Assembly: GCF_003334765.1 (NCBI RefSeq)
Contig: NZ_QOWT01000017.1
Strand: one strand, 5' to 3'
DNA from: Escherichia coli
GTDB taxonomy: Bacteria > Pseudomonadota > Gammaproteobacteria > Enterobacterales > Enterobacteriaceae
Length of the DNA: 64,000 bases
This document shows, piece after piece, positions 89 to 48,476 of the stretch. Made by a program: the position numbers and the translations under genes. Positions within the stretch are counted from its first letter, which is position 1. Each line of letters begins with the position of its first letter. Under the pieces are notes generated by a model. The model was not told the origin of the DNA, ran no database searches, and saw only the letters and a program-made list of their open reading frames with translations.

Positions 89-634
89 TTATTTCAGCGT
101 CGGTTTGTCGGTTAAATGGGCGATTTCTCGGGCGAAATTCGCCACCTGCTCCCAATCGGTATAGACAACTTCTTTGCGCGTATCCGTTTCACCGCCTGAC
201 ATCTTCATAATCAGCTTGATCATAAAACGGTCGTACCAGCGATAACGTGGGTAACGCAGCGCCCCGGCAATGACCGCGCAGCGATCGGGACGCCATTGCG
301 AGTTCATCAGAAACTTGCGCGCGTAGCTGTTGGTCTGTGGAGTACGCTTCTCCGGTTTGCGCGCCACCAGATTCACGGAGTAAAAGGCGCTCGGCATCGA
401 ATTCAGCCGCGTCGCATGTTTTTTGACAAATTCCTGGAACGCTGAATGGTAGTGACCATAGCGAATAGAAGCACCAATGACCACACGGTCATAGTTTTCC
501 CACTGTGGTTCTTCAATGCGGTGCACATTGGCGACATCCGCCTGGATCCCCAGTTCTTTCAGTTCCGAAGCCAGGTAGGAGGCAATCTCGCGCGTTTGTC
601 CGTCCCTTGTTGAGAAAAGAATTAATGTTTTCAC
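89..634 (-). CDS. hemG: Protoporphyrinogen IX dehydrogenase (menaquinone-dependent), flavodoxin-like
   Basis: 181-aa ORF, recognised HemG sequence; immediately downstream of trkH. Confidence 0.93.
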
Positions 635-645
635 GTATTACTCCA

Positions 646-2097
646 TCATTCACGCCAGAAAGTCGGGGTAAAGAGCACCAGCAATGTAAAGACCTCGAGA
701 CGACCAAACAGCATGTTGGCAATCAGGATCCATTTAGCCACCGGGTTCATACTGGTAAAGTTATCAGCAACCACGCCAAGCCCTGGCCCCAGGTTATTCA
801 ATGTCGCAACAACCGACGCAAAGGCAGAAAAGTCATCCACGCCCGTGGCGATAATCGCCAGCATACTGACAATAAACACCAATGCATAGGCGGAGAAAAA
901 TCCCCAAACGGCTTCGAGGATACGTTCCGGCAGTGCGCGATTCCCCAGCTTAATGCTATAGACGGCGTTCGGATGCACCAGTCGTTTCAGCTCACGGTTC
1001 CCCTGCTTAAACAGCAGCAGGATGCGGATCACCTTCAGGCCACCGCCCGTTGACCCGGCGCAACCGCCGATAAAGGCTGAACATAAAAGCAGTACCGGCA
1101 AAAAGAGCGGCCAGCGGGCAATGCTGTCAGTTGTAAACCCGGCGGTTGTCGCCATCGACACCACCTGGAAAAACGCCTGGTTAATTGTCATCAGCGCCGA
1201 ACTGTAGACATTATGAAACCACAGTACGAGGGTACAAATAACCACCAGCGTAAACTGTACGCCGATAAACATGCGAAATTCCGGATCGCGCCAATAAACC
1301 TTCAGACTACGCCCACTTAACAGTGAAAAGTGCAGACCGTAGTTACAGCCGGAGATCAGCAGGAAGATAGCAATGATAGTGTTAATAGTCGGGCTATCGA
1401 AATAACCGATACTGGCATCATGTGTCGAGAAGCCGCCAATAGCGATAGTCGCAAAGCTATGGCCGATGGCATCAAAGGCATCCATTCCGGCAAACCACAA
1501 CGCCAGCGCACAGGCGACGGTCAGCAAGACATAAATCAACCACAGGGTTTTCGCCGTTTCCGCAATTCGCGGGCGCATTTTGTTATCTTTCAGCGGGCCG
1601 GGCATTTCTGCGCGATAGAGCTGCATCCCACCCACGCCGAGGATAGGCAGTATCGCAACCGCCAACACGATGATCCCCATCCCGCCAAACCATTGCAGCA
1701 TCTGGCGATAAAAGAGGATGGCGTGAGGGAGCGAATCCAGCCCCACCAGCGTAGTGGCTCCCGTAGTGGTCAGGCCAGAGAAAGATTCAAAAAACGCATC
1801 GGTAATCGTGAGGTTCGGGCTTTCCGAGAAGATAAAAGGGAGCGCACCGACGCTACCCAGCACGGTCCAGAACAGCACCACTATCAGAAACCCCTCACGG
1901 GATTTAAGTTCGCCTTTCTCTTTGCGGTTCGGCCACCACAGCATAGAGCCAATGGCGAGGGCGACAAAAAAGGTCTGGGTAAAAGCGCGGCCCGCTCCAT
2001 CCCGGTAGATGAGTGCTACCAGCCCAGGGATAATCATGGTCCCTGAAAATAAGATGACCAGTAGTCCAACGATTCGGGTAATGGCGCGAAAATGCAT
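646..2097 (-). CDS. trkH: Trk system potassium uptake protein TrkH
   Basis: 483-aa polytopic membrane ORF, recognised TrkH. Confidence 0.93.
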   Translation of the reverse strand: MHFRAITRIVGLLVILFSGTMIIPGLVALIYRDGAGRAFTQTFFVALAIGSMLWWPNRKEKGELKSREGFLIVVLFWTVLGSVGALPFIFSESPNLTITDAFFESFSGLTTTGATTLVGLDSLPHAILFYRQMLQWFGGMGIIVLAVAILPILGVGGMQLYRAEMPGPLKDNKMRPRIAETAKTLWLIYVLLTVACALALWFAGMDAFDAIGHSFATIAIGGFSTHDASIGYFDSPTINTIIAIFLLISGCNYGLHFSLLSGRSLKVYWRDPEFRMFIGVQFTLVVICTLVLWFHNVYSSALMTINQAFFQVVSMATTAGFTTDSIARWPLFLPVLLLCSAFIGGCAGSTGGGLKVIRILLLFKQGNRELKRLVHPNAVYSIKLGNRALPERILEAVWGFFSAYALVFIVSMLAIIATGVDDFSAFASVVATLNNLGPGLGVVADNFTSMNPVAKWILIANMLFGRLEVFTLLVLFTPTFWRE

Positions 2098-2135
2098 CTC
2101 TGCCGCTTCCTTAGTTCTGCAAAACGAAGTGGGGA

Positions 2136-2750
2136 TTATTCTTCAATCGCTAACAATTGCAATGAACCACGGCTAAAATCCGCCAGCTTTGCGGAAAATT
2201 CAGCCACTTTCGCCGCCGGAAGCGCCACCCGCAGCAGAACGAATGCCTGATAATCACTGTTGATAATTTTGCCGTCACACTGCCCCAGCAACGCTTCAAT
2301 GCCGGTTAACTGATGATATTCACATTGCAAAGTATATTCGGTTAATGGCGTCTTGCGTTGGGTCGTTAGCTGGCGCAGCGCCTGATTCACGCCGCCGCCA
2401 TACGCTTTCACTAACCCACCGGTGCCAAGCAATATGCCGCCGTAGTAGCGCACTACCACAGCGGTAATTTCCCCGACGCCGCTGCCCATTAGCTGGGCGA
2501 GCATCGGTTTACCTGCCGTTCCCGCCGGCTCCCCGTCGTCAGAGAAACCCAGCTGTTGAGAATCATCCGGCGCACCCGCGACCCACGCCACGCAATGGTG
2601 CCGGGCATCGGGGTGTTCTGCCCGCACCGATTCAACAAACGCTTTCGCCGCCTCAACGCCATCGGTATGCGCCAACATCGTTATGAAGCGGCTCTTTTTG
2701 ATCTCTTCAACGACCGTGACCGGTGCCGCAGGAATTAACCAGCTTTCCAT
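2136..2750 (-). CDS. yigZ: IMPACT-family protein YigZ
   Basis: 204 aa from the ATG at 2750 (track start 2753 is a GTG one codon upstream); ATG overlaps pepQ stop by 1 nt (TGATG). Confidence 0.85.
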   Translation of the reverse strand: MESWLIPAAPVTVVEEIKKSRFITMLAHTDGVEAAKAFVESVRAEHPDARHHCVAWVAGAPDDSQQLGFSDDGEPAGTAGKPMLAQLMGSGVGEITAVVVRYYGGILLGTGGLVKAYGGGVNQALRQLTTQRKTPLTEYTLQCEYHQLTGIEALLGQCDGKIINSDYQAFVLLRVALPAAKVAEFSAKLADFSRGSLQLLAIEE

Positions 2751-4081
2751 CACGCCAGTTTCAGATCCCGGGTCATGTTTTCCACGTTGTTTTCGTGGAT
2801 CACCACGTTGTCTTCGATACGAATGCCGCCGAACGGTTTCAGTGCTTCAATTTTCTGCCAGTTGAAGTGCTTGCTGAACTGCCCTTCACGCCACGGTGCC
2901 AGTAGCGATTCGATGAAGTAGATACCCGGTTCGATGGTTAACACCATGCCCGGCTGGAGAATACGGGTGCAGCGCAGGTACGGATATTTTGCCGGTGCCG
3001 CGAGGTGCGTACCGCTATCATCCTGCATAAAACCAGCGACGTCATGCACCTGCAGGCCCAGCGGATGGCCGATACCATGCGGCATAAACGGCCCGGTAAG
3101 ATCGTTTTCGACCATCGCTTCTTCACTCATATCGGTGATGATTTGATGTTTACGCAGCAGTTTGGCGATGCGCTGATGGAACTGGATGTGGTAATCCACA
3201 TAGCTGACGCCTGCTTTCATGGTGGCGATCAGCGCCAGTTGTTCATCATTAACGTCCTTCACCAGCTGCGCGTAGTCGTTGTCACTTTTTGCCGACCAGG
3301 TACGGGTCAGGTCAGCCGCATAGCCGTTATATTCTGCCCCGGCATCCAGCAGGAAGCTGCGCATCTCTTCCGGTGCCTGATGGTCCAGTTTGGTGTAATG
3401 CAGTACCGCAGCGTGTTCGTTAAGCGCCACAATGTTGCTGTAAGGTACGTCGGTATCACGATGACCGGTCGCGGTCAGATAGGCAATGTTGATATCGAAC
3501 TCGCTCATGCCAGAACGGAACGCTTCTTCTGCCGCGCGGTGACCGTTGACCGCCATTTTCTGCGCTTCACGCATACAGGCCAGTTCGTACTCAGTTTTGA
3601 AGGAGCGATAGTAATGCAGGTAGTCGATAACCCCTTTCGGGTTGATGTTGCTGGCCTCAATACCCAGTTGCAGCGCACGTTCCGGCACCGGACCGATATA
3701 ACCGATATTGCCGCGCGCAGCAGGCAGCAGGCTACCAATGCCATCGGCTTTCGGCAGCGCGATCACTTCCACATCTTCAGTCCAGAAAGAGGTCGGCAGC
3801 GGTTCGACGTTGTGCCAGTAATCAACCGGCAGATAGAACCACAGTTTCGGCTTGTTCACGCCATCCACCAGCAACCAGCAGTTTGGCACCTGAGTTACCG
3901 GCACCCACGCTTTGAATTGCGGGTTCACTTTAAACGGATAGGGATGATCGTCGAGAAAAACATTGAACAGCTCGCCGGAGTGAATAAGTAACGCATCCAG
4001 CTTGAAGCGCGCCAGCGCATCGCGAGTCCGTTCTTGTAAGGTAGCTATATGATTTTTATAGAGCGAGGCCAGTGATTCCAT
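2750..4081 (-). CDS. pepQ: Xaa-Pro dipeptidase (prolidase)
   Basis: 443-aa ORF with M24 metallopeptidase features; divergent from fadB. Confidence 0.92.
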
Positions 4082-6460: not shown

Positions 6461-7633
<1,173 letters not shown>

Positions 7634-7639
7634 CCACTT

Positions 7640-7826
<187 letters not shown>

Positions 7827-44161: not shown

Positions 44162-44377
44162 CTTGCTGATTGACCGTAAAGAAAGATGCGCTACATACAA
44201 GTGTAGCACCGTTTATTCTCTGTAAATTCCTTATTACAACGGCGTGAAACGCCTGTCAGGATCCACTGCCAGACCTCATTTTACGGTTTGCGCAGGCGTC
44301 TACGTTTCACCACAACACTGACATCACTCTGGCAAGGATGTTAGGATGGACCACGGATGATAATGACGGTAACAAGC

Positions 44378-45319
44378 ATGTTAGACAATGTTTTAAGAAT
44401 TGCCACACGCCAAAGCCCACTTGCACTCTGGCAGGCACACTATGTCAAAGACAAGTTGATGGCGAGCCATCCGGGCCTGGTCGTTGAACTGGTACCGATG
44501 GTGACGCGCGGCGATGTGATTCTTGATACGCCGCTGGCGAAAGTAGGCGGAAAAGGCTTATTTGTAAAAGAGCTGGAAGTCGCGCTCCTCGAAAATCGCG
44601 CCGATATCGCCGTACACTCAATGAAAGATGTGCCGGTTGAATTCCCGCAAGGTCTGGGACTGGTCACTATTTGTGAGCGTGAAGATCCTCGCGATGCCTT
44701 TGTGTCCAATAACTATGACAGTCTGGATGCGTTACCGGCAGGCAGTATCGTCGGGACGTCCAGTTTACGTCGCCAGTGCCAACTGGCTGAACGCCGTCCG
44801 GATCTGATTATCCGCTCCCTGCGCGGCAACGTCGGCACTCGCCTGAGCAAACTGGATAACGGCGAATACGATGCCATCATTCTTGCCGTAGCCGGACTAA
44901 AACGTTTAGGTCTGGAGTCACGTATTCGCGCCGCGTTGCCACCCGAGATTTCTCTTCCGGCGGTAGGACAAGGTGCGGTGGGTATTGAATGCCGCCTTGA
45001 TGATTCACGCACTCGCGAGCTGCTTGCCGCGCTGAATCACCACGAAACTGCACTGCGCGTTACCGCAGAACGCGCCATGAATACCCGTCTCGAAGGCGGA
45101 TGTCAGGTGCCAATTGGTAGCTACGCCGAGCTTATTGATGGCGAAATCTGGCTGCGTGCGCTGGTCGGCGCGCCGGACGGTTCGCAGATTATTCGCGGTG
45201 AACGCCGCGGTGCGCCGCAAGATGCCGAACAAATGGGGATTTCGCTGGCAGAAGAGCTACTGAATAACGGCGCGCGCGAGATCCTCGCTGAAGTCTATAA
45301 CGGAGACGCCCCGGCATGA
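44378..45319 (+). CDS. hemC: Porphobilinogen deaminase (hydroxymethylbilane synthase)
   Basis: 313 aa from [20 protein letters not shown]; track ORF extended 7 codons. Confidence 0.95.
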
Positions 45320-46077: not shown

Positions 46078-47277
46078 ATGACGGAACAAGAAAAAACCTC
46101 CGCCGTGGTTGAAGAGACCAGGGAGGCCGTGGACACCACGTCACAACCTGTCGCAACAGAAAAAAAGAGTAAGAACAATACCGCATTGATTCTCAGCGCG
46201 GTGGCTATCGCTATTGCTCTGGCGGCGGGCATCGGTTTGTATGGCTGGGGTAAACAACAGGCCGTCAATCAGACCGCCACCAGCGATGCCCTGGCTAACC
46301 AACTGACGGCATTGCAAAAAGCCCAGGAGAGCCAAAAAGCCGAGCTGGAAGGCATTATTAAGCAACAAGCTGCACAACTTAAGCAGGCGAATCGTCAGCA
46401 AGAAACGCTGGCAAAACAGTTGGATGAAGTCCAACAAAAGGTCGCCACCATTTCCGGCAGCGATGCTAAAACCTGGCTGCTGGCTCAGGCCGATTTTCTG
46501 GTGAAACTCGCCGGACGGAAGCTGTGGAGCGATCAGGACGTCACGACCGCTGCAGCGTTGCTGAAAAGTGCAGACGCCAGCCTGGCGGATATGAATGACC
46601 CGAGTCTGATTACCGTTCGTCGGGCAATTACCGATGATATCGCCAGCCTTTCTGCAGTATCGCAGGTGGATTATGACGGCATCATCCTTAAGCTTAATCA
46701 GCTTTCAAATCAGGTAGATAACCTGCGTCTGGCCGATAATGACAGCGATGGTTCGCCGATGGATTCAGACGGTGAAGAGCTTTCCAGTTCCATCAGCGAA
46801 TGGCGTATCAATCTGCAAAAAAGCTGGCAGAACTTTATGGACAACTTCATTACGATTCGCCGTCGTGATGACACCGCCGTACCGCTGTTAGCGCCAAATC
46901 AGGATATCTATCTGCGCGAAAATATTCGCTCTCGCCTGCTGGTCGCAGCACAAGCTGTACCGCGTCACCAGGAAGAGACTTATCGCCAGGCGCTGGAGAA
47001 CGTCTCCACCTGGGTACGTGCTTACTACGATACTGATGATGCCACCACCAAAGCGTTCCTCGACGAGGTGGACCAGTTAAGCCAGCAAAATATCTCGATG
47101 GATCTTCCGGAAACCCTGCAAAGCCAGGCGATGCTGGAAAAACTGATGCAGACTCGCGTGCGTAACCTGCTGGCACAACCGGCAGCGGGGACAACGGAAG
47201 CTAAACCTGCACCTGCACCTGCACCTGCACCTGCACCGCAAGCTGATACTCCGGCAGCCGCGCCGCAAGGAGAATAA
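46078..47277 (+). CDS. hemX: HemX (putative uroporphyrinogen-III C-methyltransferase-like membrane protein)
   Basis: 399-aa ORF with N-terminal TM helix, coiled-coil region and Pro-Ala repeat near the C terminus. Confidence 0.88.
47206..47235 (+). repeat. Perfect tandem hexanucleotide repeat (CCTGCA)x5 encoding (Pro-Ala)5 within hemX
   Basis: Five contiguous identical CCTGCA units read directly from the sequence. Confidence 0.9.
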
Positions 47278-47279
47278 CC

Positions 47280-48476
47280 ATGCTAAAAGTGTTATTGCTC
47301 TTTGTGTTGCTGATTGCGGGGATCGTGGTTGGCCCGATGATTGCCGGCCATCAGGGTTATGTGCTGATCCAGACCGACAACTACAATATCGAAACCAGCG
47401 TCACGGGCCTGGCGATCATATTGATTCTGGCGATGGTAGTGCTGTTTGCCATTGAGTGGCTACTGCGGCGGATCTTCCGCACTGGCGCGCACACCCGTGG
47501 GTGGTTTGTCGGACGTAAGCGTCGCCGTGCACGTAAGCAGACCGAACAGGCGCTGCTGAAACTGGCGGAAGGCGATTATCAGCAAGTTGAAAAGCTGATG
47601 GCGAAAAATGCCGATCACGCGGAACAACCGGTGGTGAACTATCTACTGGCTGCCGAAGCCGCGCAACAACGTGGTGATGAAGCACGCGCCAACCAACATC
47701 TGGAACGCGCAGCGGAGCTGGCCGGCAACGACACCATTCCGGTAGAAATCACCCGCGTACGTCTGCAACTGGCCCGTAATGAAAACCATGCTGCACGCCA
47801 CGGCGTGGATAAGCTGCTGGAAGTTACGCCACGCCATCCGGAAGTATTACGTCTGGCGGAACAGGCGTATATCCGCACAGGTGCATGGAGTTCGCTGCTG
47901 GATATTATCCCATCAATGGCGAAAGCCCATGTTGGTGATGAAGAACATCGTGCAATGCTGGAACAACAGGCATGGATTGGCCTGATGGATCAGGCGCGTG
48001 CCGATAACGGTAGCGAAGGTTTGCGTAACTGGTGGAAAAACCAAAGCCGGAAAACGCGTCATCAGGTAGCGTTGCAGGTGGCAATGGCGGAACATCTTAT
48101 TGAATGTGACGATCATGATACTGCCCAGCAAATTATCATCGATGGCCTGAAACGCCAGTACGACGATCGCCTACTGCTGCCGATTCCTCGACTGAAAACA
48201 AACAATCCGGAACAGCTGGAAAAAGTGCTGCGCCAGCAAATCAAAAACGTCGGCGATCGCCCGCTGTTGTGGAGCACACTGGGCCAGTCACTGATGAAGC
48301 ACGGAGAATGGCAGGAAGCATCGCTCGCCTTCCGCGCAGCGCTGAAACAACGTCCGGACGCCTACGATTACGCATGGCTTGCCGACGCGCTGGACAGACT
48401 GCACAAGCCGGAAGAAGCTGCAGCGATGCGTCGCGACGGTTTGATGTTAACGTTGCAGAATAACCCGCCACAGTAG
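47280..48476 (+). CDS. hemY: HemY (TPR-like membrane protein of the hem operon)
   Basis: 398-aa ORF with two N-terminal TM helices, 2 bp after hemX stop. Confidence 0.92.
   Translation: MLKVLLLFVLLIAGIVVGPMIAGHQGYVLIQTDNYNIETSVTGLAIILILAMVVLFAIEWLLRRIFRTGAHTRGWFVGRKRRRARKQTEQALLKLAEGDYQQVEKLMAKNADHAEQPVVNYLLAAEAAQQRGDEARANQHLERAAELAGNDTIPVEITRVRLQLARNENHAARHGVDKLLEVTPRHPEVLRLAEQAYIRTGAWSSLLDIIPSMAKAHVGDEEHRAMLEQQAWIGLMDQARADNGSEGLRNWWKNQSRKTRHQVALQVAMAEHLIECDDHDTAQQIIIDGLKRQYDDRLLLPIPRLKTNNPEQLEKVLRQQIKNVGDRPLLWSTLGQSLMKHGEWQEASLAFRAALKQRPDAYDYAWLADALDRLHKPEEAAAMRRDGLMLTLQNNPPQ

Follow-up and report, generated by a model that had tools for sequence, protein, structure and literature searches.

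Why does the hemX gene of Escherichia coli contain a six-letter DNA word repeated five times without error, and does the number of repeats matter to the cell? We address this question for a 64,000-nucleotide stretch of one strand of E. coli DNA (hereafter the window; NCBI RefSeq assembly GCF_003334765.1, contig NZ_QOWT01000017.1), in which five perfect copies of CCTGCA stand on the + strand at positions 47206-47235. The array is a known typing locus, CVN014, and is very probably a coding microsatellite in which replication slippage generates in-frame, near-neutral length variation within an unstructured protein tail.

The hemX array as typing locus CVN014

The five units lie in frame within the hemX open reading frame (ORF; 46078-47277) and encode (Pro-Ala)5, residues 377-386 of HemX. 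Tandem Repeats Finder (TRF) reports 5.5 copies with 100% matches and a score of 66, the full period-6 register also taking in the A before the array and the CC after it. This is the sole perfect multi-copy array of a short unit that TRF detects in the window, and such tracts are expected by chance about 5e-10 times per 64 kb. Direct reading, TRF and the ORF list agree with the original prediction on the position, unit, copy number, frame and (Pro-Ala)5 translation of the array. The CCT-GCA codon pair is identical in every unit, a uniformity that is the signature of duplication at the DNA level rather than of selection for a Pro-Ala peptide.

The primers of a generic E. coli scheme for multiple-locus analysis of variable-number tandem repeats (VNTRs), or MLVA (Lindstedt 2007), are reproduced in Table 1 of PMC8143711. 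Those for locus CVN014 each match the window once, where no match is expected by chance, and face each other across the tract; the degenerate R of primer CVN014-R coincides with a G/A single-nucleotide polymorphism (SNP) seen between strains. The amplicon, positions 47182-47322, measures 141 bp, or 111 + 5x6. Specifically, the published sizing rule, (PS-111)/6 (PMC8143711), converts this length to 5 units, which is the count in the sequence. Because the primers flank the tract without mismatch and the amplicon obeys the sizing rule, the hemX tract is CVN014, already known, and the window carries allele 5. In 2007 Lindstedt et al. reportedly included CVN014 in the GECM-7 scheme for E. coli and Shigella, which Lobersli et al. 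are said to have extended to GECM-10 in 2012.

Published surveys describe CVN014 as 'the most polymorphic locus' (9 alleles, range 4-15, D=0.83; PMC3519732), as the locus with the largest variation in the scheme (PMC5217547), and likewise as the scheme's most variable locus (PMC3877011). In the literature searched, the CVN014 papers contain no occurrence of the name hemX, and the searches found no paper naming hemX as a VNTR host gene in E. coli; the mention of hemX in another VNTR paper (PMC5183578) concerns an unrelated Salmonella SNP. Placing CVN014 in its gene and protein context, namely in a tail outside the folded domain and under a constraint from the hemY ribosome-binding site, is a small annotation addition and not a discovery.

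The hexamer loci of the O157:H7 MLVA scheme (TR1-TR7 / O157-3, -9, -10, -17, -19, -25, -37) resemble the hemX VNTR in that they likewise have 6-bp units, several of them intragenic, change by whole units and serve in outbreak typing. When units were compared for TR1-TR7, a set that leaves O157-37 and the Japanese EHC loci outside it, none of them (AAATAG, TGGCTC, TATCTT, TGCAAA, AAGGTG, an 18-mer and GACCAC) was a rotation of CCTGCA. We rejected TR7/O157-19 as a candidate for this site on these grounds, its unit being GACCAC, and the TR7 value of 6 in EDL933 is a coincidence rather than a link to the hemX tract.

Copy number among complete E. coli genomes

If the tract is a VNTR, how widely does it vary? 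A 241-bp query around it was compared with 5,426 complete E. coli genomes, and the locus was found in every one (5426/5426), with match lengths of 217-319 bp that change in 6-bp steps. Twenty-two loci spanning this size range were fetched and read at the sequence level, and they contain alleles of 1-13, 15, 16, 17, 18, 22 and 23 units plus one allele that lacks the tract. Among these 22, all length differences are confined to the tract and consist of whole CCTGCA units, one microhomology deletion excepted, and the tracts are pure CCTGCA save for one CCTGTA interruption. The hemX gene is open and annotated as intact in every fetched allele, the proteins measuring 384-435 aa.

K-12 MG1655 has 2 units and a hemX of 1182 bp and 393 aa. 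It thereby matches the reference form of 393 aa, three units shorter than the window's, that the original prediction had given. Counting repeats across E. coli genomes, the check proposed in that prediction, reveals that copy number is not identical among strains, and the variable, in-frame copy number that it anticipated is found from 0 or 1 to 23 units, always as whole CCTGCA units with hemX open throughout.

Two of the fetched loci are exceptions. Strain 90-3040 (NZ_CP027459.1) has 3 units, the last of which is CCTGTA (Ala to Val), and this is the sole interrupted tract of the 22; interruptions usually stabilise microsatellites. In strain NCTC11023 (NZ_LS483297.1), an in-frame deletion of 45 bp at about 1200-1233 of the locus, equivalent to window positions 47208-47252, has taken out the whole tract together with the five codons that follow; the deletion junction (AAACC joined to GGCAGCC) has a 2-bp CC microhomology. 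The HemX of this strain is 384 aa long and annotated as intact, and thus an open hemX does not require the tract.

Because BLAST identity-band counts are confounded by SNPs in the flanks, allele frequencies were taken from two systematic samples of 60 rows each. The combined samples (n=120) comprise 17 different alleles, with Nei's D at 0.887 and a median copy number of 6, distributed as follows (units:genomes): 0:1, 1:1, 2:20, 3:6, 4:7, 5:20, 6:20, 7:11, 8:10, 9:8, 10:5, 11:4, 12:2, 13:1, 15:1, 16:1 and 18:2. The peak at 2 units is a sampling artefact made up largely of K-12 laboratory derivatives (C600, MG1655, MC4100, J53, Origami and others). An exact threshold count places 9 or more units in 1228 of the 5426 genomes (22.6%). 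When genomes were ranked by tract length with a synthetic 30-unit query, at least 60 had 15 or more units, alleles of 19, 20 and 21 units were also present, and the maximum was 23; the rankings at 17, 22 and 23 units were confirmed at the sequence level. The diversity among complete genomes (D=0.89) agrees with the published status of CVN014 as the most polymorphic locus, whereas the allele range of 0-23 is wider than those of the PCR surveys (4-15; 2-12).

Could this variation merely reflect errors of sequencing or assembly in a low-complexity region? Short repeats can mis-assemble in draft genomes, and one HemX protein of 485 aa (P0001) shows a strange duplication whose joint is at the tract. 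However, the data come from 5,426 assemblies of complete level, tracts of at most 138 bp are shorter than single reads, every sampled row whose strain name is recognisably K-12 or laboratory has 2 units, and independent MLVA sizing by PCR finds variation of the same kind. We regard an artefactual origin as hardly credible.

Some individual records deserve separate mention. P0001 is a metagenome protein from ENA with an internal HemX duplication of about 86 aa, the junction of which falls exactly in the PA tract (..TEAKPA joined to HQEETYRQ..); the second tract of the protein is not perfect (PAPAPAPTPAPAPAP), and the duplication could be real or an assembly artefact. A plasmid record contains one of the hemX-hemY matches, and in a few genomes there are two places that match (e.g. 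strain I3, NZ_CP195969.1), which suggests rare duplication or mobilisation of the chromosomal segment, or a misassigned replicon. Genome N62, a candidate for a disrupted allele in that its right flank alone gave a match, was rejected as such: it has an ordinary 3 units, and SNPs in its left flank had blocked the megablast seed.

Rate and mode of change

The pace of change is best appreciated by comparing tracts that reside on the same sequence background, which was defined here by the 1100 bp flanking the tract to the left and to the right (2200 bp). The window, K-12 MG1655, HH35 and Z1323CEC0013 have identical flanks (0 SNPs/2200 bp) and carry 5, 2, 4 and 13 units, respectively. Five O157:H7 genomes, again with identical flanks, have 5, 6, 7, 15 and 17 units, and 2014EL-1343-2 and 2017.20.01CC, also identical in their flanks, have 18 versus 23. 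Pairs that are 1-2 SNPs apart differ at 11 versus 16 and at 8 versus 18 units. Among the matches listed, the window's 2440-bp haplotype carries 5 units in 16 genomes at 100% identity and 13 units in 1, and 9 rows have it with 6 units and 29 rows with 4. Since copy numbers differ on SNP-identical flanks, turnover of the tract far outpaces the accumulation of point substitutions, and hemX copy number is homoplastic.

We propose that these alleles arise when the nascent and template strands of the CCTGCA array re-anneal out of register during replication. Such misalignment would add or remove whole 6-bp units and, each unit being two codons (Pro-Ala), the products would stay in the hemX frame. 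The unit contains the palindrome TGCA, and imperfect hairpins are predicted for single strands (-14 kcal/mol for 12 units, z=-5.2), which could stabilise slipped-out loops. The tract has the properties of a VNTR, that is, perfect head-to-tail units, whole-unit alleles and variation within clones. Slippage, judged likely in the original prediction, accords with the unit-wise changes, the purity of the tracts, the variation on SNP-identical backgrounds and the stability of the 2-unit allele, which in K-12 is in line with slippage rates usually rising as tracts lengthen. Passage experiments with other 6-bp VNTRs of O157:H7 recorded whole-unit changes at 4e-5 to 1.8e-3 per generation (PMC3777172).

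Recombination could lead to the same outcome. RecA-dependent unequal exchange between sister chromosomes, or horizontal import of alleles, would account for the large gaps on identical backgrounds (5 versus 15-17, 8 versus 18 and 5 versus 13 units) as multi-unit events; E. coli does recombine, and its flanking haplotypes cross serotypes, as with the one shared by the window, K-12 and Z1323CEC0013. However, tracts of 12-138 bp are, by general knowledge, mostly at or below the length for efficient RecA exchange, and with flanks identical over 2.2 kb any imported segment must be free of SNPs. Moreover, comparable 6-bp VNTRs undergo mostly single-unit changes, and some multi-unit ones, during clonal passage (PMC3777172). 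We consider recombination or import unlikely as the source of the alleles.

Several points weigh against an account based on slippage and near-neutrality. We infer slippage from the pattern of the sequences alone, and the O157:H7 alleles are bimodal (5-7 and 15-17 units), which needs multi-unit jumps or lineage-specific drift. There is an apparent ceiling at about 23 units together with a mode at 5-6, a shape that could arise from mutation bias or from weak selection on tail length. Finally, the set of complete genomes does not sample E. coli at random, and K-12 derivatives swell its 2-unit class.

The slippage model invites comparison with the contingency loci of Haemophilus, Neisseria and Campylobacter, in which perfect short intragenic repeats also slip. 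In those systems the units are not multiples of three, or the repeats are promoter spacers, and expression is switched on and off. The features of phase variation are absent from hemX, in which the unit is 6 bp, the gene is intact in all fetched alleles and the tract lies inside the coding sequence rather than in a promoter. A unit of two codons makes on/off switching impossible.

The HemX tail and the question of function

The ORF is HemX. The Pfam family PF04375 (HemX) matches residues 130-363 over model positions 2-235 of 236 (E=3.8e-108), all matching RefSeq genomes annotate the ORF as hemX, and the window ORFs and RefSeq annotation confirm the gene order hemC-hemD-hemX-hemY. In an AlphaFold2 (AF2) model built from a 90-sequence alignment (mean pLDDT 83.5), residues 36-126 form a single long helix, comprising a membrane anchor and a coiled coil, and are followed by a helical domain whose last helix spans residues 348-366. 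The remaining residues, 367-399, are modelled as coil with a pLDDT of 53-62, versus 96-98 in the domain. By both Pfam and AF2, only 15 unstructured residues and no folded element lie beyond the tract. The 'C-terminal linker' of the original prediction is in this respect a misnomer: the tract belongs to a 33-residue terminal tail past the Pfam domain, which ends at residue 363, with the last AF2 helix ending at 366, and it joins no two folded domains. The coordinates of the features discussed here are collected in Table 1.

Table 1. Features at the hemX-hemY junction of the window and the evidence for each
Feature	Position	Strand	Evidence
hemX coding sequence, 399 aa	46078..47277	+	ORF, Pfam, RefSeq, AF2
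HemX C-terminal tail codons, residues 367-399	47176..47274	+	low-complexity Ala/Pro-rich; AF2 coil
Primer CVN014-R site (GCAGCRGGGACAACGGAAGC), 0 mismatches	47182..47201	+	primer from PMC8143711
Full period-6 register including partial units (5.5 copies)	47205..47237	+	TRF
(CCTGCA)x5 tract, variable core of VNTR CVN014, allele 5	47206..47235	+	sequence, TRF
Putative hemY Shine-Dalgarno AAGGAG, within final hemX codons (PQGE and stop)	47267..47272	+	sequence and inference
hemY coding sequence; start 2 nt past hemX stop codon, 44 nt past tract	47280..48476	+	ORF, RefSeq
Primer CVN014-F site (TCCCCGCAATCAGCAAMACAAAGA), 0 mismatches, inside hemY	47299..47322	-	primer from PMC8143711

How strongly is this tail constrained? 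The post-domain tails of 129 diverse representatives of the HemX family range from 0 to 383 aa, with a median of 13 and no conserved composition. In close genera the tail is rich in Ala, Pro and Thr and differs in both sequence and length: short (AP)n runs are present in some species of Citrobacter, and the same comparison finds no PA run in the Salmonella tail. Fixed in these close genera are the start of the tail, LAQP, and its end, APQGE; Escherichia, Citrobacter and Salmonella all share the C-terminal QGE, whereas the part of the tail upstream of it varies. The hemY Shine-Dalgarno sequence overlaps those codons, and the conservation of QGE is probably a DNA-level constraint from the hemY ribosome-binding site, rather than a reflection of HemX function. 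The tail is otherwise weakly constrained, and a microsatellite is therefore able to expand and contract there.

A separate case is found in the HemX tails of Citrobacter sedlakii (P0015/P0016, P0026/P0027, P0030 and others), which vary by whole AAP units to give proteins of 394, 397 and 400 aa. Here another genus has, at the equivalent position, an independent VNTR with a 9-bp unit.

The location of the tract completes the proposed mechanism. Because the units lie in a tail that appears unstructured, outside the folded domain and upstream of the hemY ribosome-binding site, changes in length would be tolerated. They would then accumulate almost neutrally to yield the broad allele spread, about 0-23 units with a mode of 5-6. 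Near-neutrality of tract length is thus a conclusion drawn from where the tract lies and how its alleles are distributed.

Might the length of the tail nevertheless be under selection? A (Pro-Ala)n run could act as a semi-rigid spacer that sets the reach of the C terminus or the meeting with a partner, its variation being selected. HemX belongs to the envelope; its two-hybrid interaction with YhcB/ZapG is conserved, and it has been found to co-purify with YciS (PMC8163987). It has also been described as a distant Mic60 homologue in which the mitofilin domain is missing (bioRxiv 10.1101/2022.06.14.496148). A hydrophobic segment at about residues 36-57 is preceded by KKSK, and from the sequence and general knowledge the tail is probably periplasmic (N-in/C-out). 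The tails of enterobacterial HemX proteins are consistently rich in Ala and Pro, and the allele sizes appear bounded around their mode. A precedent is tolA, for which one report (PMC3477136) describes in-frame repeat variation that modulates stress tolerance.

The comparison with tolA is only partly apt. Both genes encode inner-membrane-anchored envelope proteins with a strain-variable, in-frame repeat in an extended region (PMC3477136). The tolA repeat is found in the long domain II, which joins functional domains, and its copy number reportedly alters stress tolerance, whereas the hemX tract sits in a terminal tail with nothing downstream. A similar contrast applies to Pro-Ala linkers of the same composition as the hemX tract, such as the OmpA hinge, the lipoyl-domain linkers of the 2-oxo acid dehydrogenase E2 and the Pro-rich TonB spacer, which join two folded or functional modules, while the HemX tract precedes no more than the 15 residues noted above. 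Segments rich in Pro-Ala or Ala-Pro, the HemX tract among them, are probably extended and flexible.

Other evidence also speaks against adaptive tuning. The family tails lack a conserved length or composition, Salmonella does without the PA run, the tract is absent from one E. coli strain, and near-clonal strains with 5 to 17 units look like the product of drift rather than of an optimum. The identical codons point to DNA-level duplication, and no paper tying the hemX repeat to a phenotype was found in the literature searched. Selection for spacer length is, in our view, quite improbable as the explanation of the variation, and there is at most a slight chance that the (Pro-Ala)n tail is non-neutral in the sense of tuning periplasmic reach or contact with a partner, e.g. 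YhcB/ZapG or LapA/YciS. If it were, envelope physiology would have in CVN014 a fast-evolving 'tuning knob', similar in this to the tolA repeat.

A further alternative is that tract length acts on the RNA, altering messenger structure or ribosome traffic ahead of hemY and thereby the ratio of hemX to hemY expression. Between the tract and the hemY Shine-Dalgarno sequence downstream lie 31 nt, the spacing of the two genes makes translational coupling plausible, and the repeat RNA pairs with itself, its minimum free energy falling by about 2.5 kcal/mol per unit. However, in partition-function folds this extra pairing stays within the repeat, and the unpaired probabilities of the Shine-Dalgarno sequence and the initiation region are the same (0.00 and 0.29) from 0 to 24 units. 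The distances from the Shine-Dalgarno sequence and the hemX stop codon to the hemY ATG are independent of copy number, and ribosomes translating hemX would unwind the region anyway. Tract length is thus predicted to have no effect on hemY translation, and we think a regulatory role very unlikely.

The annotation of the host gene and other parts of the window gave rise to additional observations. RefSeq names the HemX product 'uroporphyrinogen-III C-methyltransferase', and the Pfam label for the domain is merely putative. The AF2 model is all-helical and membrane-anchored with a 90-residue helix, a secondary structure unlike the methyltransferase fold, and the name of the product is apparently a misannotation of legacy origin. 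The hemC ORF at 44357-45319 encodes 320 aa, whereas the RefSeq start is 21 nt (7 codons) downstream and gives 313 aa, a trivial ambiguity of the start codon. Elsewhere in the window, TRF reports a 98-bp unit in 1.9 copies with 85% matches at 7633-7824; its consensus contains a sequence that resembles a repetitive extragenic palindrome (REP; GCCGGATGCGGCGTAAACGCCTTATCCGGCCTAC), and the repeat is probably a cluster of REPs of the bacterial interspersed mosaic element (BIME) type.

CVN014 is an established marker for epidemiological typing, and the survey of complete genomes confirms its diversity and widens its allele range to 0-23. Its fast change explains its value in the fine-scale discrimination of outbreaks, while homoplasy and change on SNP-identical backgrounds caution against its use in deep phylogeny. 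For annotation, HemX lengths of 384-435 aa among E. coli strains represent benign allelic variation and not error. The hemX tract is apparently an ordinary, in-frame, near-neutral microsatellite of little importance beyond bookkeeping. For the biology of HemX, the finding indicates that the extreme C-terminal tail tolerates large changes in length, save for the last codons, which carry the hemY ribosome-binding site.

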